Assembly: GCA_964016885.1 (NCBI GenBank)
Contig: OZ024747.1
Span: 62,496,001-62,560,000 of the forward strand
DNA length: 64,000 bases
DNA from: Eledone cirrhosa
Lineage: Eukaryota
Direction of reading: 5' to 3'
The position numbers and the translations under genes were made by a program. Shown here piece by piece: positions 20,020 through 64,000 of this stretch. Position 1 is the stretch's first letter. Each line of letters begins with the position of its first letter. The notes under the pieces are model-generated. The model saw nothing but the letters and a program-made list of their open reading frames with translations. It was not told the DNA's origin and did no database searches.

Positions 20020-20803
20020 CTGTCCCATGAATATGTACCAAAAGAAATTCTATGTGTGGTTTGGTTTCCAAATAATCTGAGTTTTCGGCAACAGGATCCT
20101 GTTTCTTGAAAACAAAGTCGTTTACTTCCCACCTATTACCCCAAACAAACCTCAATAGAACAGCAATCTATCTCCAGTAACATTTTAAAACGTCATAGCA
20201 CCTGACAGCTACCTATACCTGATAACTAGGCTTAATTATGGTGTTCAATTTTAAACGTGCGTAAAGAAGTTAGCCGACAAGAATGCTGTAGCGTGAATGA
20301 TCGACCTGCTACAATTAGTAGACAATTCCTTTCAAAACACACTGAATTGTATCAACATAAAAAGAATGATACCTTATTCCCGGAGTAAAATACGAGATGG
20401 CTATTAGTATATACTATAAGAAGAAAATGAAAAAGAAAAAGAAAAATAAAAAGAAAAAGAAGAAGAAGAATCAACAAAAATTCTTCATTGATATTCTATT
20501 TATCGACTCCCAAAGGATGAAAAGCGAAGAAGATGTGATCGGGGAAGGAGTTTGAGCGTAGAGCGCAAAGTGTCGAAACAAATACCGCAAGGTATTGTGT
20601 CACAATATATCACTGTATTTACTGTATTACAAACGTTTCATTAAATTACAGTATCTGAGGACTTGGTGAGGTTACCCTAAACATACGGAAAGTCAACAGC
20701 ATTGACTCAATCCTTATGCTTAGAGAATATATCGTGTGTATGTAACCCTAACTCCTGGTGGAGCCCCGGGGTTCCCCTACTGACATATGATGTGTCTTAG
20801 TTA

Positions 20804-22691
20804 TTTTAAACCTGTTTGAGCTCATCACTCTCCAGGTCTGAACGCAGTTTTAAACCTGGTTTGGCCCATCACTCTCCAGGTCTGTACACAGCTAATTTTA
20901 AACCTGGTTTGGCCCATCACTCTCCAGGTCTGTACACAGTTAATTTTAAACCTGGTTTAGCACATCACTCTCCAGGTCTGTACACAGTTAATTTTAAACC
21001 TGGTTTAGCACATCACTCTCCAGGTCTGTACACAGTTAATTTTAAACCTGGTTTAGCACATCACTCTCCAGGTCTGTACACAGTTAATTTTAAACCTGGT
21101 TTAGCACATCACTCTCCAGGTCTGTACACAGTTAATTTTAAACCTGGTTTAGCACATCACTCTCCAGGTCTGTACACAGTTAATTTTAAACCTGGTTTAG
21201 CACATCACTCTCCAGGTCTGTACACAGTTAATTTTAAACCTGGTTTAGCACATCACTCTCCAGGTCTGTACACAGTTAATTTTAAACCTGGTTTAGCACA
21301 TCACTCTCCAGGTCTGTACACAGTTAATTTTAAACCTGGTTTAGCACATCACTCTCCAGGTCTGTACACAGTTAATTTTAAACCTGGTTTAGCACATCAC
21401 TCTCCAGGTCTGTACACAGTTAATTTTAAACCTGGTTTAGCACATCACTCTCCAGGTCTGTACACAGTTAATTTTAAACCTGGTTTAGCACATCACTCTC
21501 CAGGTCTGTACACAGTTAATTTTAAACCTGGTTTAGCACATCACTCTCCAGGTCTGTACACAGTTAATTTTAAACCTGGTTTAGCACATCACTCTCCAGG
21601 TCTGTACACAGTTAATTTTAAACCTGGTTTAGCACATCACTCTCCAGGTCTGTATACAGCTAATTTTAAACCTGGTTTAGCACATCACTCTCCAGGTCTG
21701 TACACAGTTAATTTTAAACCTGGTTTAGCACATCACTCTCCAGGTCTGTACACAGTTAATTTTAAACCTGGTTTAGCACATCACTCTCCAGGTCTGAATA
21801 CAGCTAATTTTAAACCTGGTTTAGCACATCACTCTCCAGGTCTGTACACAGCTAATTTTAAACCTGGTTTAGCACATCACTCTCCAGGTCTGTACACAGC
21901 TAATTTTAAACCTGTTTTAGCACATCACTCTCCAGGTCTGTACACAGCTAATTTTAAACCTGGTTTAGCACACCACTCTCCAGGTCTGTACACAGCTAAT
22001 TTTAAACCTGGTTTAGCACATCACTCTCCAGGTCTGTACACAGTTAATTTTAAACCTGTTTTAGCACATCACTCTCCAGGTCTGTACACAGTTAATTTTA
22101 AACCTGGTTTAGCACATCACTCTCCAGGTCTGTACACAGCTAATTTTAAACCTGGTTTAGCACATCACTCTCCAGGTCTGTACACAGCTAATTTTAAACC
22201 TGGTTTAGCACATCACTCTCCAGATCTGTACACAGTTAATTTTAAACCTGGTTTAGCACATCACTCTCCAGGTCTGTACACAATTAAATTTAAACCTGGT
22301 TTAGCACATCACTCTCCAGGTCTGTACACAGCTAATTTTAAACCTGGTTTAGCACATCACTCTCCAGGTCTGTACACAGTTAATTTAAAACCCGGTTTAG
22401 CACATCACTCTCCAGGTCTGAATACAGTTAATTTTAGACCTGGTTTAGCACATCACTCTCCAGGTCTGTACACAGTTAATTTTAAACCTGGTTTAGCACA
22501 TCACTCTCCAGGTCTGTACACAGCTAATTTTAAACCTGGTTTAGCACATCACTCTCCAGGTCTGTACACAGCTAATTTTAAACCTGGTTTAGCACATCAC
22601 TCTCCAGGTCTGTACACAGCTAATTTTAAACCTGGTTTAGCACATCACTCTCCAGGTCTGAATACAGCTAATTTAAAACCTGGTTTAGCAC
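20804..22691. repeat. 48-bp minisatellite, about 39 copies
   Basis: Unit AATTTTAAACCTGGTTTAGCACATCACTCTCCAGGTCTGTACACAGTT. Reads as an open 16-aa repeat on the + strand. Confidence 0.98.
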
Positions 22692-24269
22692 AGAAGGAGA
22701 AGCAATGATATCAAGGAAGTGAGAAAGAGACAAAAGATGTAGAAGATAAATCGACATTAGTAGTAGACTGGTACTTCTTTTATCGACCTAGAAAGGATGG
22801 AAAGCTCCATTGATCTCTGCCGGATTTGAACTCAGAACGTAGAGGGTTAGAACGAATAGCTTATGATCACAATGTTCTGGCTTTGATTCTCATATCAGGT
22901 GATACGTTGTGTTCATTCGTAAGGCATTTCATTTCATGTTGCTCCTGTTCACTCATCTGCAATGATTACCAGCAGTAGCGGCAACTGGAAGTTAACCCTG
23001 AGATGAGGCGGTGTCCCGTCAAGGGGAGGATAAGTATTGTATTATGAGTCGGTTAACACTTCCAGCTCGAGCAGATATAAAAAAAAGAAACAGACGTAAA
23101 ATGATAATTCTAACTCTTTAGGATTGTACTAATTGTCTTTTTAAAGGTTTTGTGGTATTTTTGTTGTTGTGAGGATATTTAGCTACTCACTCTAGCAGCT
23201 CAAGTAACGTGCTCGGAGTACGGTCGTTAGTTTATTAAAATTGCGCTGTTACTTCATTGAGAGAATACTTCCTGTTGCAGAAGGCTTTTCTTCACTTCTA
23301 TTGACAAAACCAACAAAGATTTAGAAAATAAAAATAGATATGGCTGCTAAGTCTTCTCTTTTGTAGTAATTTGCTACAGAATTTTCTTTTGACGCTCTGG
23401 AAAGTAATGAAGTGAACAGAGCTGTCAGTTGAGAGACTCTTTCATGATTTACATTGACGTTTTATTGTGATGGTTTCTGTCATTGCTTTGGAACACATCA
23501 CTTGAATTTAATTTCTTATCCAGTCTAAATAGGTTCCACTTCTTAGATCGAAAGGAAAATATTGGAATTTATGTTTTTTTGTTTTTTTTTGTTTTGTTTT
23601 GTTTGTTTCAACGAGAAGTTATATTTAACCAGTAACAATGAAGAAATTCAAATCTGTTTTAATTAATTTTTCTCAAAATAAAAACAATATTGACGAAATG
23701 ATGAACTAGTAAGATTTATCGGGTCAGAAATATATAAAGGAAGGACGAAAACAAAATAGAAAGAAAGAGTGTTTGATTAAAAACTTTGAAAGAGAGCCAA
23801 CAACTATTTTATTAATTATAAGTATTTTAGAGAATATAAAAGGAATCATTAATTATAGAAATGGCGTATCTCCCAAACAGAACTTCAATTAAGTATGATT
23901 GCTTCTGTGATTGAATCACAGAAGCTTTAATTGATTGCTTTTCAGTTGAATGTGGTGTTAATTCTTGAGAGGATTTAGTGTCAGCCTTTTTCATTGACAA
24001 TTCACATTTCAATGTGTTAAAATTTGCCTTACATTTCTCCAGTTCCATACCCAATAAATTAGATATCAATAATGTATTAGGTACAATATAATCGATTACA
24101 GTTTTCCGTTACAAAATTTGGTTTTACTTCCATGGAAGTAATTAATATTTTCTAGCGTCAAGTTGTTCTTCTCTTTGTAATAATTGGAAACTTCATTGAC
24201 AGCTTCACATGTTTATTGTATCGTCCAAGAGTTGGTACTGTATTAAGTTCCTCACTAAAAACATTTGAT

Positions 24270-24842: not shown

Positions 24843-24908
<66 letters not shown>

Positions 24909-25313
24909 CTATGTATATATATATTATATATATATATATATAACTATGTATATATATATATTATATATATATATAACTATGTATATATATATTATATATA
25001 TATATAACTATGTATATATATAAAAACAAATAACGAAACGAAATTAAATTTCGTTTCGTTTGTAACTCACTTTTGTATGACTGACGCTTAAACAATTAAG
25101 TTAAAAATGTACATCCACATATGTATACTGAAATACTAGTATGCATATGAATACACACACGTGTACATATGTAGATGTACCGAGTTTTCACTGGTCACTT
25201 TACTGTGAGTGTCCAGCTATTCTGTATGTAAACACACATACAAACCGGTTTTTAGAGTCATACTGGTTTTTGAGGAAACACCTTTCCTCTATTCTCCAGA
25301 AAGCCAGACAAGG

Positions 25314-25358
25314 AATATTGGACTAGTTTCGATGTTGTTACATCTCATCAGCAATATT
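25314..25358 (-). ncRNA. Canonical minimal type I hammerhead ribozyme
   Basis: Minus strand: AATATTG CTGATGA GATGT-AACA-ACATC GAAA CTAG TC CAATATT. Perfect 7-bp stem I, 5-bp stem II with a G-C closing pair, palindromic ACUAGU stem III, GUC cleavage triplet. Confidence 0.93.
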
Positions 25359-25754
25359 TACCTATCTTCCGGCCTCTCTAGAGAATCGTGAAAGCACATA
25401 TCGCTATATGCTTTTTCTATGAAAATTAGTAGTGGGCAGACCAATTTGCATAGAGCGTGAGTACGTACCGGTTCAACGGAGACGATAAAAACAAATAACG
25501 AAACGAAATTAAATTTCGTTTCGTTTGTAACTCACTTTTGTATGACTGACGCTTAAACAATTAAGTTAAAAATGTACATCCACATATGTATACTGAAATA
25601 CGTGTGTGTATTCATATGCATACTAGTATTTCAGTATACATATGTGGATGTACATTTTTAACTTAATTTTTAACTTAATTGTTTATGTATATATATATTA
25701 TATATATACATATATATATATATTATATATATATATAACTATGTATATATATAT

Positions 25755-25807
<53 letters not shown>

Positions 25808-25832
25808 CTATGTATATATATATATATATTAT

Positions 25833-25865
<33 letters not shown>

Positions 25866-25917
25866 AAACTATGTATTATATATATATATACATATATATA
25901 TATATAAAACTATGTAT

Positions 25918-25951
<34 letters not shown>

Positions 25952-25960
25952 ACTATGTAT

Positions 25961-25998
<38 letters not shown>

Positions 25999-26013
25999 AC
26001 TATGTATTATATA

Positions 26014-26064
<51 letters not shown>

Positions 26065-26083
26065 TATATATATAATACATAGT

Positions 26084-26115
<32 letters not shown>

Positions 26116-26122
26116 ATACATA

Positions 26123-26161
<39 letters not shown>

Positions 26162-26162
26162 C

Positions 26163-26219
<57 letters not shown>

Positions 26220-26275
26220 CTATGTATATATATATATATATTATATATATATAAATATATATATATATATAAAAC

Positions 26276-26311
<36 letters not shown>

Positions 26312-26320
26312 TATGTATTA

Positions 26321-26411
<91 letters not shown>

Positions 26412-26436
26412 CTATGTATATATTTATATATATTAT

Positions 26437-26469
<33 letters not shown>

Positions 26470-26477
26470 AAACTATG

Positions 26478-26526
<49 letters not shown>

Positions 26527-26571
26527 CTATGTATTATATATATATACATATATATATATATAACTATGTAT

Positions 26572-26629
<58 letters not shown>

Positions 26630-31642: not shown

Positions 31643-31654
31643 CCAACAGTAGAT

Positions 31655-31980
31655 ATACCGAAATATTAGAATGAAGTCATCATATCACCAACAGTGGCTA
31701 TATCGAAATATTGAGATGAAGATATCATATATTACCAACAGTGGCTATATCGAAATATTGAGATGAAGATATCATATATTCCCAACAGTTATACCGAGAT
31801 ATTGAGATGAAGATATCATATATTACCAACAGTGGCTATATCGAAATATTGAGATGAAGATATCATATATTACCAACAGTTATACCGAGATATTGAGATG
31901 AAGATATCATATATACTAACAGTTGTTATACCGAGATATTGAGATGAAGATATCATATATTACCAACAGTGACTATATCG
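31655..31980. repeat. About 44-47-bp minisatellite, about 7 copies
   Basis: Unit approximately ATATCGAAATATTGAGATGAAGATATCATATATTACCAACAGTGGCT. A related single unit lies at 31357-31393. Confidence 0.92.
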
Positions 31981-33275: not shown

Positions 33276-33308
33276 CGGCCATCTTTGGCTGTGACCTCTT
33301 CAGGCAGT
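33273..33308 (-). ncRNA. Hammerhead truncated at stem III, running into (TA)n
   Basis: Minus strand: ACTGC CTGAAGA GGTCA-(10 nt)-TGGCC GAAA (TA)n. The 3' strand of stem I is absent. Same family as 19054-19109. Confidence 0.7.
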
Positions 33309-41418: not shown

Positions 41419-41484
41419 TATTTCGTTATATATATTTCAGGGATATCATATTAACAATATGTTATGCCTTCTTTAGACAAAATA
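41419..41484 (-). ncRNA. Hammerhead copy with G5A core mutation (predicted inactive)
   Basis: Minus strand: TATTTTGT CTAAAGA AGG...CCT GAAA TATATA TA ACGAAATA. Confidence 0.75.
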
Positions 41485-51121: not shown

Positions 51122-51251
51122 TACACACTGTGTATGTGTGCGTGGTTTCCAAAAAGTGGTTGCAAAGGGTTCATCTGAATATACAGACGGATTAAAGGTA
51201 AAAAAGCACTAAACTTCTGTTTTAATCGTAGAGACGCCGTCTTAACACATA

Positions 51252-54200
51252 GGCATTAAGACAGAACAGATACCCAGGTGTTAAGACAGAACAGATACCC
51301 AGGTATTAAGACAGAACAGATACCCAGGCATTAAGACAGAACAGATACCCAGGTATTAAGACAGAACAGATACCCAGGCATTAAGACAGAACAGATACCC
51401 AGGTATTAAGACAGAACAGATACCCAGGTATTAAGACAGAACAGATACCCAGGCATTAAGACGGAACAAATACCGAGGTATTAAGACAGAACAGATACCC
51501 AGGTATTAAGACAGAACAGATACCGAGGTATTAAGACAGAACAGATACCGAGGTATTAAGACAGAACAGATACCCAGGTATTAAGACAGAACAGATACCC
51601 AGGCATTAAGACAGAACAGATACCGAGGTATTAAGACAGAACAGATACCCAGGTATTAAGACAGAACAGATACCCAGGTATTAAGACAGAACAGATACCC
51701 AGGCATTAAGACAGAACAGATACCGAGGTATTAAGACAGAACAGATACCCAGGCATTAAGACAGAACAGATACCCAGGTATTAAGACAGAACAGATACCC
51801 AGGCATTAAGACAGAACAGATACCGAGGTATTAAGACAGAACAGATACCCAGGTATTAAGACAGAACAGATACCCAGGTATTAAGACAGAACAGATACCC
51901 AGGCATTAAGACAGAACAGATACCCAGGTATTAAGACAGAACAGATACCCAGGTATTAAGACAGAACAGATACCCAGGCATTAAGACAGAACAGATACCG
52001 AGGTATTAAGACAGAACAGATACCCAGGTGTTAAGACAGAACAGATACCCAGGTATTAAGACAGAACAGATACCCAGGCATTAAGACAGAACAGATACCG
52101 AGGTATTAAGACAGAACAGATACCCAGGTATTAAGACAGAACAGATACCGAGGTATTAAGACAGAACAGATACCCAGGCATTAAGACAGAACAGATACCC
52201 AGGTATTAAGACAGAACAGATACCGAGGTATTAAGACAGAACAGATACCCAGGTATTAAGACAGAACAGATACCGACGTATTAAGACAGAACAGATACCC
52301 AGGTATTAAGACAGAACAGATACCCAGGCATTAAGACAGAACAGATAGCGAGGTATTAAGACAGAACAGATACCCAGGTATTAAGACAGAACAGATACCC
52401 AGGTATTAAGACAGAACAGATACCCAGGCATTAAGACAGAACAGATACCCAGGTATTAAGACAGAACAGATACCCAGGTATTAAGACAGAACAGATACCC
52501 AGGCATTAAGACAGAACAGATACCGAGGTATTAAGACAGAACAGATACCCAGGTATTAAGACAGAACAGATACCGAGGTATTAAGACAGAACAGATACCG
52601 AGGTATTAAGACAGAACAGATACCCAGGTATTAAGACAGAACAGATACCCAGGTATTAAGACAGAACAGATACCCAGGTATTAAGACAGAACAGATACTG
52701 AAGGTATTAAGACAGAACAGATACCCAGACATTAAGACAGAACAGATACCCAGGTATTAAGACAGAACAGATACCCAGGCATTAAGACAGAACAGATACC
52801 CAGACATTAAGACAGAACAGATACCCAGGTATTAAGACAGAACAGATACCCAGGCATTAAGACAGAACAGATACCCAGGCATTAAGACAGAACAGATACC
52901 CAGGTATTAAGACAGAACAGATACCCAGGCATTAAGACAGAACAGATACCCAGGCATTAAGACAGAGCAGATACCCAGGTATTAAGACAGAACAGATACC
53001 CAGGTATTAAGACAGAACAGATACCCAGACATTAAGACAGAACAGATACCCAGACATTAAGACAGAACAGATACGCAGGTATTAAGACAGAACAGATACC
53101 CAGGCATTAAGACAGAACAGATACCGAGGTATTAAGACAGAACAGATACCCAGGTATTAAGACAGAACAGATACCCAGGCATTAAGACAGAACAGATACC
53201 GAGGTATTAAGACAGAACAGATACCCAGGCATTAAGACAGAACAGATACCCAGGTATTAAGACAGAACAGATACCCAGACATTAAGTCAGAACAGATACC
53301 GAGGTATTAAGACAGAACAGATACCCAGACATTAAGACAGAACAGATACCCAGGCATTAAGACAGAACAGATACCCAGGTATTAAGACAGAACAGAGACC
53401 CAGACATTAAGTCAGAACAGATACCCAGGTATTAAGACAGAACAGATACCCAGACATTAAGACAGAACAGATACCCAGGTATTAAGACAGAACAGATACC
53501 CAGACATTAAGACAGAACAGATACCCAGGTATTAAGACAGAACAGAGACCCAGACATTAAGTCAGAACAGATACCCAGGTATTAAGACAGAACAGATACC
53601 CAGACATTAAGTCAGAACAGATACCCAGGTATTAAGACAGAACAGATACCCAGGCATTAAGACAGAACAGATACCCAGGCATTAAGACAGAACAGATACC
53701 CAGGCATTAAGACAGAACAGATACCCAGGTATTAAGACAGAACAGATACCCAGGTATTAAAACAGAACAGATACCCAGACATTAAGACAGAACAGATACC
53801 CAGACATTAAGACAGAACAGATACCCAGGTATTAAGACAGAACAGATACCCAGGCATTAAGACAGAACAGATACGCAGGTATTAAGACAGAACAGATACC
53901 CAGGCATTAAGACAGAACAGATACCCAGGTATTAAGACAGAACAGGTACCCAGACATTAAGACAGAACAGATACCCAGGTATTAAGACAGAACAGATACC
54001 CAGGTATTAAGACAGAACAGATACCCAGGCATTAAGACAGAACAGATACCCAGGTATTAAGACAGAACAGATACCCAGGCATTAAGACAGAACAGATACC
54101 CAGGTATTAAGACAGAACAGATACCCAGGTATTAAGACAGAACAGAGACCCAGACATTAAGTCAGAACAGATACCCAGGTATTAAGACAGAACAGGTACC

Positions 54201-57200
54201 CAGGTATTAAGACAGAACAGATACCCAGGCATTAAGACAGAACAGATACCCAGGTATTAAGACAGAACAGATACCCAGGTATTAAGACAGAACAGATACC
54301 CAGACATTAAGACAGAACAGATACCCAGACATTAAGACAGAACAGATACCCAGGTATTAAGACAGAACAGATACCCAGGCATTAAGACAGAACAGATACG
54401 CAGGTATTAAGACAGAACAGATACCCAGGCATTAAGACAGAACAGATACCCAGGTATTAAGACAGAACAGGTACCCAGACATTAAGACAGAACAGATACC
54501 CAGGTATTAAGACAGAACAGATACCCAGGTATTAAGACAGAACAGATACCCAGGCATTAAGACAGAACAGATACCCAGGTATTAAGACAGAACAGATACC
54601 CAGGCATTAAGACAGAACAGATACCCAGGTATTAAGACAGAACAGATACCCAGGTATTAAGACAGAACAGAGACCCAGACATTAAGTCAGAACAGATACC
54701 CAGGTATTAAGACAGAACAGATACCCAGACATTAAGACAGAACAGATACCCAGGTATTAAGACAGAACAGGTACCCAGACATTAAGACAGAACAGATACC
54801 CAGGTATTAAGACAGAACAGAGACCCAGACATTAAGTCAGAACAGATACCCAGGTATTAAGACAGAACAGATACCCAGGTATTAAGACAGAACAGATACC
54901 GAGGTGTTAAGACAGAACAGATACCCAGGCATTAAGACAGAACAGATACCCAGGCATTAAGACAGAACAGATACCCAGGTATTAAGACAGAACAGATACC
55001 GAGGTGTTAAGACAGAACAGATACCCAGGCATTAAGACAGAACAGATACCCAGGTATTAAGACAGAACAGATACCCAGGTATTAAGACAGAACAGATACC
55101 CAGGCATTAAGACAGAACAGATACCCAGGTATTAAGACAGAACAGATACCCAGACATTAAGTCAGAACAGATACCGAGGTATTAAGACAGAACAGATACC
55201 CACACATTAAGACAGAACAGATACCCAGGCATTAAGACAGAACAGATACCCAGGTATTAAGACAGAACAGATACCCAGACATTAAGTCAGAACAGATACC
55301 GAGGTATTAAGACAGAACAGATACCCAGACATTAAGACAGAACAGATATCCAGGCATTAAGACAGAACAGATACCCAGGTATTAAGACAGAACAGAGACC
55401 CAGACATTAAGTCAGAACAGATACCCAGGTATTAAGACAGAACAGATACCCAGACATTAAGACAGAACAGATACCCAGGTATTAAGACAGAACAGATACC
55501 CAGACATTAAGACAGAACAGATACCCAGGTATTAAGACGGAACAGAGACCCAGACATTAAGTCAGAACAGATACCCAGGTATTAAGACAGAACAGATACC
55601 CAGACATTAAGTCAGAACAGATACCCAGGTATTAAGACAGAACAGATACCCAGGCATTAAGACAGAACAGATACCCAGGCATTAAGACAGAACAGATACC
55701 CAGGCATTAAGACAGAACAGATACCCAGGTATTAAGACAGAACAGATACCCAGGTATTAAGACAGAACAGATACCCAGACATTAAGACAGAACAGATACC
55801 CAGACATTAAGACAGAACAGATACCCAGGTATTAAGACAGAACAGATACCCAGGCATTAAGACAGAACAGATACGCAGGTATTAAGACAGAACAGATACC
55901 CAGGCATTAAGACAGAACAGATACCCAGGTATTAAGACAGAACAGGTACCCAGACATTAAGACAGAACAGATACCCAGGTATTAAGACAGAACAGATACC
56001 CAGGTATTAAGACAGAACAGATACCCAGGCATTAAGACAGAACAGATACCCAGGTATTAAGACAGAACAGATACCCAGGCATTAAGACAGAACAGATACC
56101 CAGGTATTAAGACAGAACAGAGACCCAGACATTAAGTCAGAACAGATACCCAGGTATTAAGACAGAACAGATACCCAGACATTAAGACAGAACAGATACC
56201 CAGGTATTAAGACAGAACAGGTACCCAGACATTAAGACAGAACAGATACCCAGGTATTAAGACAGAACAGAGACCCAGACATTAAGTCAGAACAGATACC
56301 CAGGTATTAAGACAGAACAGATACCCAGGTATTAAGACAGAACAGATACCGAGGTGTTAAGACAGAACAGATACCCAGGCATTAAGACAGAACAGATACC
56401 CAGGCATTAAGACAGAACAGATACCCAGGTATTAAGACAGAACAGATACCGAGGTGTTAAGACAGAACAGATACCCAGGCATTAAGACAGAACAGATACC
56501 CAGGTATTAAGACAGAACAGATACCCAGGTATTAAGACAGAACAGATACCCAGGCATTAAGACAGAACAGATACCCAGGTATTAAGACAGAACAGATACC
56601 CAGACATTAAGTCAGAACAGATACCGAGGTATTAAGACAGAACAGATACCCACACATTAAGACAGAACAGATACCCAGGCATTAAGACAGAACAGATACC
56701 CAGGTATTAAGACAGAACAGAGACCCAGACATTAAGTCAGAACAGATACCCAGGTATTAAGACAGAACAGATACCCAGACATTAAGACAGAACAGATACC
56801 CAGGTATTAAGACAGAACAGGTACCCAGACATTAAGACAGAACAGATACCCAGGTATTAAGACAGAACAGAGACCCAGACATTAAGTCAGAACAGATACC
56901 CAGGTATTAAGACAGAACAGATATCCAGGTATTAAGACAGAACAGATACCGAGGTGTTAAGACAGAACAGACACCCAGGCATTAAGACAGAACAGATACC
57001 CAGGCATTAAGACAGAACAGATACCCAGGGATTAAGACAGAACAGATACCGAGGTGTTAAGACAGAACAGATACCCAGGCATTAAGACAGAACAGATACC
57101 CAGGTATTAAGACAGAACAGATACCCAGGTATTAAGACAGAACAGATACCCAGGCATTAAGACAGAACAGATACCCAGGTATTAAGACAGAACAGATACC

Positions 57201-60200
57201 CAGACATTAAGTCAGAACAGATACCGAGGTATTAAGACAGAACAGATACCCAGACATTAAGACAGAACAGATACCCAGGCATTAAGACAGAACAGATACC
57301 CAGGTATTAAGACAGAACAGAGACCCAGACATTAAGTCAGAACAGATACCCAGGTATTAAGACAGAACAGATACCCAGACATTAAGACAGAACAGATACC
57401 CAGGTATTAAGACAGAACAGATACCCAGACATTAAGACAGAACAGATACCCAGGTATTAAGACAGAACAGATACCCAGACATTAAGTCAGAACAGATACC
57501 CAGGTATTAAGACAGAACAGATACCCAGGTATTAAGACAGAGCAGATACCCAGGCATTAAGACAGAACAGATACCCAGGTATTAAGACAGAACAGATACC
57601 CAGGTATTAAGACAGAACAGATACCCAGACATTAAGACAGAACAGATACCCAGACATTAAGACAGAACAGATACCCAGGTGTTAAGACAGAACAGATACC
57701 CAGGTGTTAAGACAGAACAGATACCCAGGTGTTAAGACAGAACAGATACCCAGGCATTAAAACAGAACAGATACCCAGACATTAAAACAGAACAGATACC
57801 CAGGTGTTAAGACAGAACAGATACCCAGGTGTTAAGACAGAACAGATACCCAGGTGTTAAGACAGAACAGATACCCAGACATTAAAACAGAACAGATACC
57901 CAGACATTAAAACAGAACAGATACCCAGACATTAAGTCATAACAGATACCCAGGTATTAAGACAGAACAGATACCCAGGTGTTAAGACAGAACAGATACC
58001 CAGGCATTAAGACAGAACAGATACCCAGGTATTAAGACAGAACAGATACCCAGGCATTAAGACAGAACAGATACCCAGACATTAAGACAGAACAGATACC
58101 CAGGCATTAAGACAGAACAGATACCCAGGCATTAAGACAGAACAGATACCCAGGTATTAAGACACAACAGATACCCAGGTATTAAGACAGAACAGATACC
58201 CAGGCATTAAGACAGAACAGATACCCAGGTGTTAAGACAGAACAGATACCCAGGTGTTAAGACAGAACAGATACCCAGACATTAAAACAGAACAGATACC
58301 CAGGTGTTAAGACAGAACAGATACCCAGACATTAAAACAGAACAGATACCCAGGTGTTAAGACAGAACAGATACCCAGGTGTTAAGACAGAACAGATACC
58401 CAGGCATTAAGACAGAACAGATACCCAGGTGTTAAGACAGAACAGATACCCAGGTGTTAAGACAGAACAGATACCCAGGTGTTAAGACAGAACAGATACC
58501 CAGACATTAAAACAGAACAGATACCCAGGTGTTAAGACAGAACAGATACCCAGGTGTTAAGACAGAACAGATACCCAGACATTAAGACAGAACAGATACC
58601 CAGGTATTAAGACAGAACAGATACCCAGGTGTTAAGACAGAACAGATACCCAAGTATTAAGACAGAACAGATACCGAGGTGTTAAGACAGAACAGATACC
58701 CAGGTATTAAGACAGAACAGATACTCAGGCATTAAGACAGAACAGATACCCAGGTGTTAAGACAGAACAGATACCCAGGTGTTAAGACAGAACAGATACC
58801 CAGGTGTTAAGACAGAACAGATACCCAGACATTAAAACAGAACAGATACCCAGGTGTTAAGACAGAACAGATACCCAGGTGTTAAGACAGAACAGATACC
58901 CAGACATTAAGACAGAACAGATACCCAGGTATTAAGACAGAACAGATACCCAGGTGTTAAGACAGAACAGATACCCAAGTATTAAGACAGAACAGATACC
59001 GAGGTGTTAAGACAGAACAGATACCCAGGTATTAAGACAGAACAGATACTCAGGCATTAAGACAGAACAGATACCCAGGTATTAAGACAGAACAGATACC
59101 CAGACATTAAAACAGAACAGATACCCAGACATTAAGACAGAACAGATACCCAGGCATTAAGACAGAACAGATACCGAGGTTTTAAGACAGAACAGATACC
59201 CAGAGATTAAGACAGAACAGATACCCAGGTATTAAGACAGAACAGATACCCAGGTATTAAGACAGAACAGATACCCAGGCATTAAGACAGAACAGATACC
59301 GAGGTGTTAAGACAGAACAGATACCCAGGTATTAAGACAGAACAGATACCCAGGCATTAAGACAGAACAGATACCCAGGCATTAAGACAGAACAGATACC
59401 CAGGTATTAAGACAGAACAGATACCGAGGTGTTAAGACAGAACAGATACCCAGGTATTAAGACAGAACAGATACCCAGGCGTTAAGACAGAACAGATACC
59501 CAGGTATTAAGACAGAACAGATACCCAGGTATTAAGACAGAACAGATACCCAGGTATTAAGACAGAACAGATACCCAGGCATTAAGACAGAACAGATACC
59601 CAGGTATTAAGACAGAACAGATACCGAGGTGTTAAGACAGAACAGATACCCAGGTATTAAGACAGAACAGATACCCAGGCGTTAAGACAGAACAGATACC
59701 CAGGTATTAAGACGGAACAGATACCCAGGTATTAAGACAGAACAGATACCCAGGTGTTAAGACAACAGATACCCAGGCATTAAGACAGAACAGATACCCA
59801 GGTGTTAAGACAACAGATACCCAGGCATTAAGACAGAACAGATACCCAGGTATTAAGACAACTGATACCCAGGTATTAGGACAGAACAGATACCCAGGTA
59901 TTAAGACAGAACAGATACCCAGGTATTAAGACAACTGATACCGAGGTGTTAAGACAGAACAGATACCCAGGTATTAAGACAACTGATACCGAGGTGTTAA
60001 GACAGAACAGATACCCAGGTATTAAGACAGAACAGATACTCAGACATTAAGACAGAACAGATACCCAGGTGTTAAGACAACAGATACCCGGGTATTAAGA
60101 CAGAACAGATACCCAGGCATTAAGACAGAACAGATACCCAGGCATTAAGACAGAACAGATACCCAGGCATTAAGACAGAACAGATACCCAGACATTAAGA

Positions 60201-63200
60201 CAACTGATACCCAGGCATTAAGACAGAACAGATACCGAGGTGTTAAGACAGAACAGATACCCAGGCATTAAGACAGAACAGATACCCAGGCATTAAGACA
60301 GAACAGATACCCAGGCATTAAGACAGAACAGATACCCAGACATTAAGACAACTGATACCCAGGCATTAAGGCAGAACAGATACCGAGGTGTTAAGACAGA
60401 ACAGATACCCAGGCATTAAGACAGAACAGATACCCAGGTATTAAGACAGAACAGATACCCAGGCATTAAGACAGAACAGATACCCAGGTATTAAGACAGA
60501 ACAGATACCGAGGTGTTAAGACAGAACAGATACCCAGGCATTAAGACAGAACAGATACCCAGGTATTAAGACAGAACAGATACCCAGGCATTAAGACAGA
60601 ACAGATACCCAGGCATTAAGACAGAACAGATACCCAGGTATTAAGACAGAACAGATACCGAGGTGTTAAGACAGAACAGATACCCAGGCATTAAGACAGA
60701 ACAGATACCCAGGTATTAAGACAGAACAGATACCCAGGTATTAAGACAGAACAGATACCGAGGTGTTAAGACAGAACAGATACCCAGGTATTAAGACAGA
60801 ACAGATACCCAGGCATTAAGACAGAACAGATACCCAGACATTAAGACAGAACAGATACCCAGGTATTAAGACAGAACAGATACCCAGGCATTAAGACAGA
60901 ACAGATACCCAGGTATTAAGACAGAACAGATACCGAGGTGTTAAGACAGAACAGATACCCAGGTATTAAGACAGAACAGATACCCAGGCATTAAGACAGA
61001 ACAGATACCCAGGTATTAAGACAGAACAGATACCCAGGTATTAAGACAGAACAGATACCCAGGTATTAAGACAGAACAGATACCCAGGTATTAAGACAGA
61101 ACAGATACCGAGGTGTTAAGACAGAACAGATACCCAGGCATTAAGACAGAACAGATACCCAGGCATTAAGACAGAACAGATACCCAGGCATTAAGACAGA
61201 ACAGATACCCAGGTATTAAGACAGAACAGATACCGAGGTGTTAAGACAGAACAGATACCGAGGTGTTAAGACAGAACAGATACCCAGGTATTAAGACAGA
61301 ACAGATACCCAGACATTAAGACAGAACAGATACCCAGGCATTAAGACAGAACAGATACCTAGACATTAAGACAGAACAGATACCCAGGTATTAAGACAGA
61401 ACAGATACCCAGGTATTAAGACAGAACAGATACCGAGGTGTTAAGACAGAACAGATACCCAGGTATTAAGACAGAACAGATACCCAGGCATTAAGACAGA
61501 ACAGATACCCAGGTATTAAGACAGAACAGATACCGAGGTGTTAAGACAGAACAGATACCCAGGTATTAAGACAGAACAGATACCCAGGCATTAAGACAGA
61601 ACAGATACCCAGACATTAAGACAGAACAGATACCCAGGTGTTAAGACAGAACAGATACCCAGACATTAAGACAGAACAGATACCCAGGTATTAAGACAGA
61701 ACAGATACCCAGGTGTTAAGACAGAACAGATACCCAGGTATTAAGACAGAACAGATACCGAGGTGTTAAGACAGAACAGATACCCAGGTATTAAGACAGA
61801 ACAGATACTCAGGCATTAAGACAGAACAGATACCCAGGTATTAAGACAGAACAGATACCCAGACATTAAAACAGAACAGATACCCAGACATTAAGACAGA
61901 ACAGATACCCAGGTATTAAGACAGAACAGATACCCAGGCATTAAGACAACAGATACCGAGGTTTTAAGACAGAACAGATACCCAGACATTAAGACAGAAC
62001 AGATACCCAGACATTAAGACAGAACAGATACCCAGGTATTAAGACAGAACAGATACCCAGGCATTAAGACAGAACAGATACCGAGGTGTTAAGACAGAAC
62101 AGATACCCAGGCATTAAGACAGAACAGATACCCAGGCATTAAGACAGAACAGATACCGAGGTGTTAAGACAGAACAGATACCCAGGTATTAAGACAGAAC
62201 AGATACCCAGGCGTTAAGACAGAACAGATACCCAGGTATTAAGACAGAACAGATACCCAGGTATTAAGACAGAACAGATACCCAGGTATTAAGACAGAAC
62301 AGATACCCAGGCATTAAGACAGAACAGATACCCAGGTATTAAGACAGAACAGATACCGAGGTGTTAAGACAGAACAGATACCCAGGTATTAAGACAGAAC
62401 AGATACCCAGGCGTTAAGACAGAACAGATACCCAGGTATTAAGACGGAACAGATACCCAGGTATTAAGACAGAACAGATACCCAGGTGTTAAGACAACAG
62501 ATACCCAGGCATTAAGACAGAACAGATACCCAGGTGTTAAGACAACAGATACCCAGGCATTAAGACAGAACAGATACCCAGGTATTAAGACAACTGATAC
62601 CCAGGTATTAGGACAGAACAGATACCCAGGTATTAAGACAGAACAGATACCCAGGTATTAAGACAACTGATACCGAGGTGTTAAGACAGAACAGATACCC
62701 AGGTATTAAGACAACTGATACCGAGGTGTTAAGACAGAACAGATACCCAGGTATTAAGACAGAACAGATACTCAGACATTAAGACAGAACAGATACCCAG
62801 GTGTTAAGACAACAGATACCCGGGTATTAAGACAGAACAGATACCCAGGCATTAAGACAGAACAGATACCCAGGCATTAAGACAGAACAGATACCCAGAC
62901 ATTAAGACAACTGATACCCAGGCATTAAGACAGAACAGATACCGAGGTGTTAAGACAGAACAGATACCCAGGCATTAAGACAGAACAGATACCCAGGCAT
63001 TAAGACAGAACAGATACCCAGGCATTAAGACAGAACAGATACCCAGACATTAAGACAACTGATACCCAGGCATTAAGGCAGAACAGATACCGAGGTGTTA
63101 AGACAGAACAGATACCCAGGCATTAAGACAGAACAGATACCCAGGTATTAAGACAGAACAGATACCCAGGCATTAAGACAGAACAGATACCCAGGTATTA

Positions 63201-64000
63201 AGACAGAACAGATACCGAGGTGTTAAGACAGAACAGATACCCAGGCATTAAGACAGAACAGATACCCAGGTATTAAGACAGAACAGATACCCAGGCATTA
63301 AGACAGAACAGATACCCAGGCATTAAGACAGAACAGATACCCAGGTATTAAGACAGAACAGATACCGAGGTGTTAAGACAGAACAGATACCCAGGCATTA
63401 AGACAGAACAGATACCCAGGTATTAAGACAGAACAGATACCCAGGTATTAAGACAGAACAGATACCGAGGTGTTAAGACAGAACAGATACCCAGGTATTA
63501 AGACAGAACAGATACCCAGGCATTAAGACAGAACAGATACCCAGACATTAAGACAGAACAGATACCCAGGTATTAAGACAGAACAGATACCCAGGCATTA
63601 AGACAGAACAGATACCCAGGTATTAAGACAGAACAGATACCGAGGTGTTAAGACAGAACAGATACCCAGGTATTAAGACAGAACAGATACCCAGGCATTA
63701 AGACAGAACAGATACCCAGGTATTAAGACAGAACAGATACCCAGGTATTAAGACAGAACAGATACCCAGGTATTAAGACAGAACAGATACCCAGGTATTA
63801 AGACAGAACAGATACCGAGGTGTTAAGACAGAACAGATACCCAGGCATTAAGACAGAACAGATACCCAGGCATTAAGACAGAACAGATACCCAGGCATTA
63901 AGACAGAACAGATACCCAGGTATTAAGACAGAACAGATACCGAGGTGTTAAGACAGAACAGATACCGAGGTGTTAAGACAGAACAGATACCCAGGTATTA
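51252..64000. repeat. 25-bp satellite array (about 500 units, continues past the window end)
   Basis: Unit TTAAGACAGAACAGATACCCAGGTA with recurrent variants (GGCA, GACA, GGTG, CCGAG, AGTCAG, 2-bp deletion). Confidence 0.99.

Follow-up and report, generated by a model that had tools for sequence, protein, structure and literature searches.

Is the hammerhead-like motif on the minus strand at positions 25314 to 25358 a working ribozyme in its own right or part of something larger, and how did it come to lie in this part of the Eledone cirrhosa genome? The window, that is, the whole 64,000-nt stretch analysed here, had been searched from its letters alone, and the motif had been described as a minimal hammerhead and the best candidate for an active ribozyme. 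The analysis below indicates that it is very probably the predicted self-processing site of a 465-bp non-LTR retrozyme that is inserted in (TA)n, usually as two inverted arms, and is likely spread by the reverse transcriptase-endonuclease of a Penelope-like element (PLE).

Read on the minus strand from 25358 to 25314, the motif consists of AAUAUUG, CUGAUGA, GAUG, UAACAA, CAUC, GAA, ACUAGU, C and CAAUAUU, and the original prediction was borne out in most structural details: every conserved core nucleotide is present, stem I has 7 bp, stem II is closed by G10.1-C11.1, the ACUAGU of stem III is self-complementary, and the GUC site places C17, after which the cut is predicted, at 25321. With its three-helix junction, open stem I and CUGANGA, GAAA and NUH elements, it is a type I hammerhead. 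The description as minimal did not survive: stem I extends beyond a GUAA/UCC internal loop, loop II comprises 6 nt, and the alignment to the Rfam HH9 model spans 72 nt. Minimal hammerheads of the PLE type are those without helix III and without peripheral loop elements, and here the extended stem I, the internal loop and the 6-nt loop II are both present and conserved. A strict type I descriptor matched once in the window and in none of 40 second-order Markov controls, each 51 kb long; the motif is real and not a product of chance. The HH9 match (25298-25369; 38.9 bits, with an E of 2.5e-6 for the window as a whole) falls below the gathering score of 52, which places the hammerhead outside that family as Rfam defines it. 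Rfam miRNA matches in the window, all likewise below their gathering scores, were discarded as noise from TA repeats and hairpins. The coordinates of the features are collected in Table 1.

Table 1. The retrozyme insertion and its parts, in window coordinates.
Feature	Position	Strand	Remarks
(TA)n target, left flank	24844..25019	.	
A arm, 1.25 units	25020..25601	-	outer end 25020 abuts (TA)n; 1,908 exact TA-A junctions
Full 465-bp retrozyme unit Rz1, non-coding	25020..25484	-	465-bp-spaced tandem arrays, 100% over query
A-B tail, 69-74 nt	25020..25094	-	long hairpin; likely reverse-transcription start region
Extended type I hammerhead	25298..25369	-	core 25358-25314, distal stem I, GUAA/UCC internal loop, 6-nt loop II; predicted cut 3' of C25321
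Palindromic ACUAGU stem III	25322..25327	-	monomer: one pair + tetraloop; double hammerhead: 6-bp duplex
Octamer ATTTGCAT	25444..25451	.	also in most sister-family units seen; candidate internal promoter element
Short inverted B arm	25600..25684	+	copies 25162 to 25088 and adds a 12-nt duplication; (TA)n adjoins its outer end
(TA)n target, right flank	25685..26627	.	

Elsewhere, the window holds tandem repeats at 20799-22692 (48 bp x 39.6), 31643-31977 (47 bp x 7.3) and 51251-64000 (25 bp x 511, running off the window). It also has a 206-aa open frame on the plus strand (1786-2406), for which Pfam returned only a sub-threshold DUF6451 match and which we take to resemble the C-terminus of a LINE reverse transcriptase.

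The hammerhead is embedded in a dispersed repeat. Around it, 351 bp are 100% identical to arrays on contigs C2, C3, C8 and C9 with a spacing of 465 bp; the exact 45-mer has 1,491 copies genome-wide, and 36,390 intact cores of the same hammerhead lineage were counted, against 0 with reversed-pattern controls. Subfamilies of this unit, Rz1, are 88-100% alike, and its longest ATG-initiated frame encodes 61 aa. A unit from a C9 array has a GC content of 36.6% and, folded as a circle, reaches -151 kcal/mol versus -96 +/- 6 in 60 shuffles (z -9.1); stems I and II form in this fold. Tandem units a few hundred bp long, each with a type I hammerhead, that are non-coding, low in GC and dispersed make the repeat a non-LTR retrozyme by the sequence definition of that class (PMC7229834; 10.64898/2026.07.22.740005). 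At least two consecutive hammerhead units, the mark of an "active" element as the term is used by Li et al. 2026, occur at many other loci of the family and are missing at the window locus.

A sister family of about 420-430 bp, with 8,522 matches to a 31-letter pattern, is 63% identical to Rz1. Core, loop bases and the ACUAGU palindrome are the same in both families, stems I and II of the sister have changed in a compensatory manner, and its cut site is GUA. Among the sampled loci, GUU (71) is commoner than GUC (50), and the GUC of the window copy speaks for that copy. In 16 chosen variants, standing for no more than two or three lineages, both sides had changed in 6 of the 13 named pairs (3 in stem I, 3 in stem II), and 96% of cells were paired versus 34-48% when the partners were slid, a pattern of compensatory change expected of type I hammerhead stems, although drawn from few lineages. 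The octamer ATTTGCAT is, on its sequence, a possible internal promoter element, and an snRNA-type promoter has been reported for newt satellite 2 (PMC2220036); neither strand yielded a Pol III A box, and the sole B-box-like word lies on the non-hammerhead strand. Contigs from four sequencing runs of unrecorded kind, which were not counted as evidence of expression, also contain the family: X1 and X5 each yielded one self-closing contig of 495/496 nt, compatible equally with a circle or a tandem array, and X2 yielded 1,064 pieces of many variants. The sister family appeared in 13 contigs of X5 and in 0 of X1, the latter being no proof of absence. In two sister arrays (L231:988-4776 and L232:1052-2736), two variants about 4% apart alternate with a period of 842 bp, as if a heterodimer had been copied.

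Stem III bears most directly on whether the motif would cleave. In the monomer it amounts to one pair capped by CUAG, and all 16 aligned variants have the ACUAGU palindrome unchanged. For a natural stretch of two units, a constrained double hammerhead folded at -212.6 kcal/mol and two single hammerheads at -201.3 kcal/mol, the double form being 11.3 kcal/mol more stable (unconstrained fold, -216.1 kcal/mol). The expectation that a loopless palindromic stem III promotes dimeric cleavage thus finds support both in these energies and in precedent, since tandem newt and viroid hammerheads are reported to act as dimers (PMC6155905); by this modelling, the ACUAGU stem III favours cleavage as a double hammerhead. 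The window monomer has a stem III of the same kind as axolotl HHR_Amex1, with one pair and a palindromic tetraloop, for which 6% cleavage of the monomer in 1 h and much more of the dimer have been described (PMC7229834). By analogy, the in vitro cleavage of just 1 among 9 dimers of Xenopus retrozymes (Li et al. 2026, 10.64898/2026.07.22.740005) is a reason for caution. From the modelled fold and these analogues, we infer that the hammerhead would cleave. The window insertion carries 1 hammerhead, so a double hammerhead in cis is impossible there and tandem arrays elsewhere are the better candidates; the claim that this particular copy, one of 1,491 identical 45-mers, is the best one therefore has to be given up. 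Judged from the folds, the window copy is probably a weak ribozyme alone and could cut well only in trans, the tandem arrays being the likely active form.

The two direct copies of a 115-bp segment that were said to flank the hammerhead do exist and are 100% identical (25020-25136 and 25485-25601), and their length is 117 bp; they are the overlap of an A arm 1.25 units long rather than a separate repeat. The architecture of this insertion recurs across the genome. Outer ends fall at two fixed sites of the unit, A (window 25020) and B (25089-25094), 69-74 nt apart; junctions at the B site numbered 360 for one variant and 1,330 matches for others, some of the latter counted twice. The far ends were followed at 140 loci in the initial part of contig C1, of which 135 remained after 5 duplicates were dropped; as these loci were picked by exact end patterns, young copies are favoured and tail conservation is inflated. 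Among 95 A-anchored loci, 17 ran off, and the 78 resolved ones ended in B (61), A (0) or neither (17), the A-A expectation with independent ends being about half. The 40 B-anchored loci, 5 of them unresolved, gave 30 A, 1 B and 4 neither among the remaining 35. The sister family likewise has A-type and B-type ends on opposite strands. A single insertion at G000:C1:5738087-5752751 carries 31 hammerheads in tandem on one strand and a lone one on the other, its left end being B and its right end A.

Arms of one insertion have a median identity of 99.3%, versus 93.5% between insertions, and the partner arm ranked first in 33 of 56 comparisons and within the top three in 50 of 56; both arms of one insertion derive from the same sequence variant. 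Arm lengths vary freely around a median of about 1.1 units, inner junctions are scattered, and there is no fixed element length. Of 112 A arms, 85 pass the cut site and 65 are longer than one unit. Inner arm ends lie within 25316-25324 in 5 of 218 cases versus 4.2 expected; given this lack of enrichment at the cut site, the DNA holds no record of cleavage, and a cleaved linear monomer as template, with run-off at the cut site, was rejected on the same counts. Ends of arms longer than 200 nt are modestly piled up around the tail (65 of 185 versus 40 expected). Within long arrays, most differences between units are private ones, as if the units had been made at once from one sequence, and a circle and a homogeneous multimer fit this alike. 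Searches for target-site duplications found a shared flank string at 8 of 114 resolved loci, and only one of these, L101, was convincing; it is a single-arm insertion with a 48-nt flanking duplication.

Inverted arms, a one-ended tail and a microsatellite target are the integration footprint of PLEs, and the retrozyme displays all three. A GIY-YIG-like fragment in the window (10553-12346) led to a young family with intact 808-aa ORFs that carry RWK, DKT and CxCX5C, motifs reported to mark the (TA)n-targeting Hydra clade of PLEs (PMC8557442). On these motifs and 71 mostly unnamed homologues, the family is assigned to the Hydra type; Pfam and PDB searches with its protein gave no significant match. 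Ten of its 11 loci with two inverted ends have one A' and one B' end about 175 nt apart, which is the length of its tail; the window copy, a two-armed fragment (related loci L191-L198), is the exception. For a Poseidon PLE in vitro, two internal start sites that bound the genomic tail, a predicted dimer, and nicking and extension of AT-rich DNA on both strands have been reported (PMC11167929). As the 808-aa PLE leaves the same two-ended footprint, PLE machinery most likely mobilises the 465-bp repeat. CUGANGA is absent from the 4-kb unit of this PLE, and canonical hammerheads are reported as universal in the Hydra clade (PMC8557442). Hammerhead-like cores at window positions 33303 (-), 19104 (-), 41586 (+) and 41476 (-) precede GAAA-UAUAUA and belong to the PLE type that lacks stem III. 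An inverted repeat carries the last two in its arms, and the core at 41476 contains a mismatch.

Comparison of the retrozyme with 20 loci of the 808-aa PLE, the one autonomous PLE family covered among 59,555 PLE-like first-look candidates in the genome, gave no BLASTN match (word 7, E 1). Clustering of 1,178 TA-adjacent ends recovered the sister family and no coding partner. A 9-mer shared near the A ends was considered as a link to the partner and dropped, being missing from the sister family.

These observations can be assembled into a pathway in which multimeric transcripts would be cut as double hammerheads into 465-nt monomers, which a host ligase would likely circularise. A dimeric PLE protein would then nick a (TA)n tract on both strands and start a cDNA at each of A and B. 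With a circle or an uncut multimer as template, both cDNAs would extend beyond one unit and then join head to head; the window copy would be one such short insertion, with a single hammerhead. Tentatively, and with less confidence than the assignment of the element itself, we propose that the insertions record rolling-circle target-primed reverse transcription of ribozyme-made circular RNA, with a dimeric Hydra-type PLE acting in trans and the cDNAs from A and B copied from one circle onto opposite nicked (TA)n strands. If this is true, the 465-nt RNA would offer a ready minimal substrate with which to explain both the movement of animal retrozymes and the inverted, tailed insertions of PLEs.

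Somewhat more doubtful is that the same family is mobilised by the same PLE machinery from a long uncut linear RNA, the hammerhead being a slow or protein-dependent passenger and circles playing no part. In the anole PLE, hammerhead mutants are reported still to insert, the main substrate being uncut RNA (PMC11167929); homogeneous arrays of 12-31 units could serve as sources, most A arms pass the cut site, and the same alternating two-variant sister array is found at two loci. A passenger role sits less easily with a core, palindrome and loop bases that are invariant between families so little alike, and, as most insertions are short and yet arms of 15 near-identical units occur, a circle is the simpler template.

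Readings that dispense with reverse transcription or with the repeat fare far worse. A DNA-level repeat bearing a fossil hammerhead, whether a MITE-like element whose ends are inverted or a satellite that recombination has spread, would account for inverted ends, tandem arrays and near-identical units; it is improbable, as the ends correspond to two different sites in the unit, arms and inner junctions follow no fixed length, and a protein-coding PLE has the same pattern. Still harder to credit is a stand-alone minimal ribozyme used by the host at this locus: its core is intact and its GUC site is in place, but the copy is a young one, identical to arrays elsewhere, with one hammerhead and set between TA runs.

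Hammerheads are well known from tandem repeats of animals, and as a motif this one is ordinary. With Rfam Hammerhead_HH9 (RF02275), the window hammerhead shares type I topology and loop layout over the full model, and differs in its sub-gathering score, the absence of a stem III loop and its multicopy mobile context. With the metazoan non-LTR retrozymes as reported in PMC7229834 (newt satellite 2, axolotl Rtz_331/HHR_Amex1), Rz1 shares a non-coding tandem unit with one type I hammerhead each, a GC content below 50%, the lack of an LTR, a highly paired predicted circle in which the hammerhead is free to fold, a one-pair palindromic stem III and loop 1/loop 2 elements. At 465 bp, Rz1 slightly exceeds the 150-450 bp given there and falls inside the range of 51-972 bp in Li et al. 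2026. Neither strict (TA)n targeting nor the two-arm A/B structure was found described in the accessible part of PMC7229834, whose supplement may show such structures, and a two-arm footprint of retrozymes was not found stated in the literature searched, subscription papers lying outside it. With PLEs (Hydra clade and Poseidon PAc, as described in PMC8557442 and PMC11167929), Rz1 shares tandem and inverted insertions, a one-ended tail, two start sites and (TA)n or AT-rich targets, whereas it has no ORF, a tail of 69-74 nt instead of 30-40 nt, and an extended instead of a minimal PLE-type hammerhead. One-ended tails and inverted copies of PLEs are already known and a PLE origin of retrozymes has already been proposed, the link between the two having so far consisted, in these sources, of co-occurrence and pLTR similarity (PMC7229834; 10.64898/2026.07.22.740005). 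What is added here is the integration footprint: thousands of young insertions with a (TA)n target, paired fixed starts and both arms of one variant. Together with an intact PLE ORF in the same genome, this footprint makes the mobilisation step, and the choice between circular and linear templates, testable in vitro.
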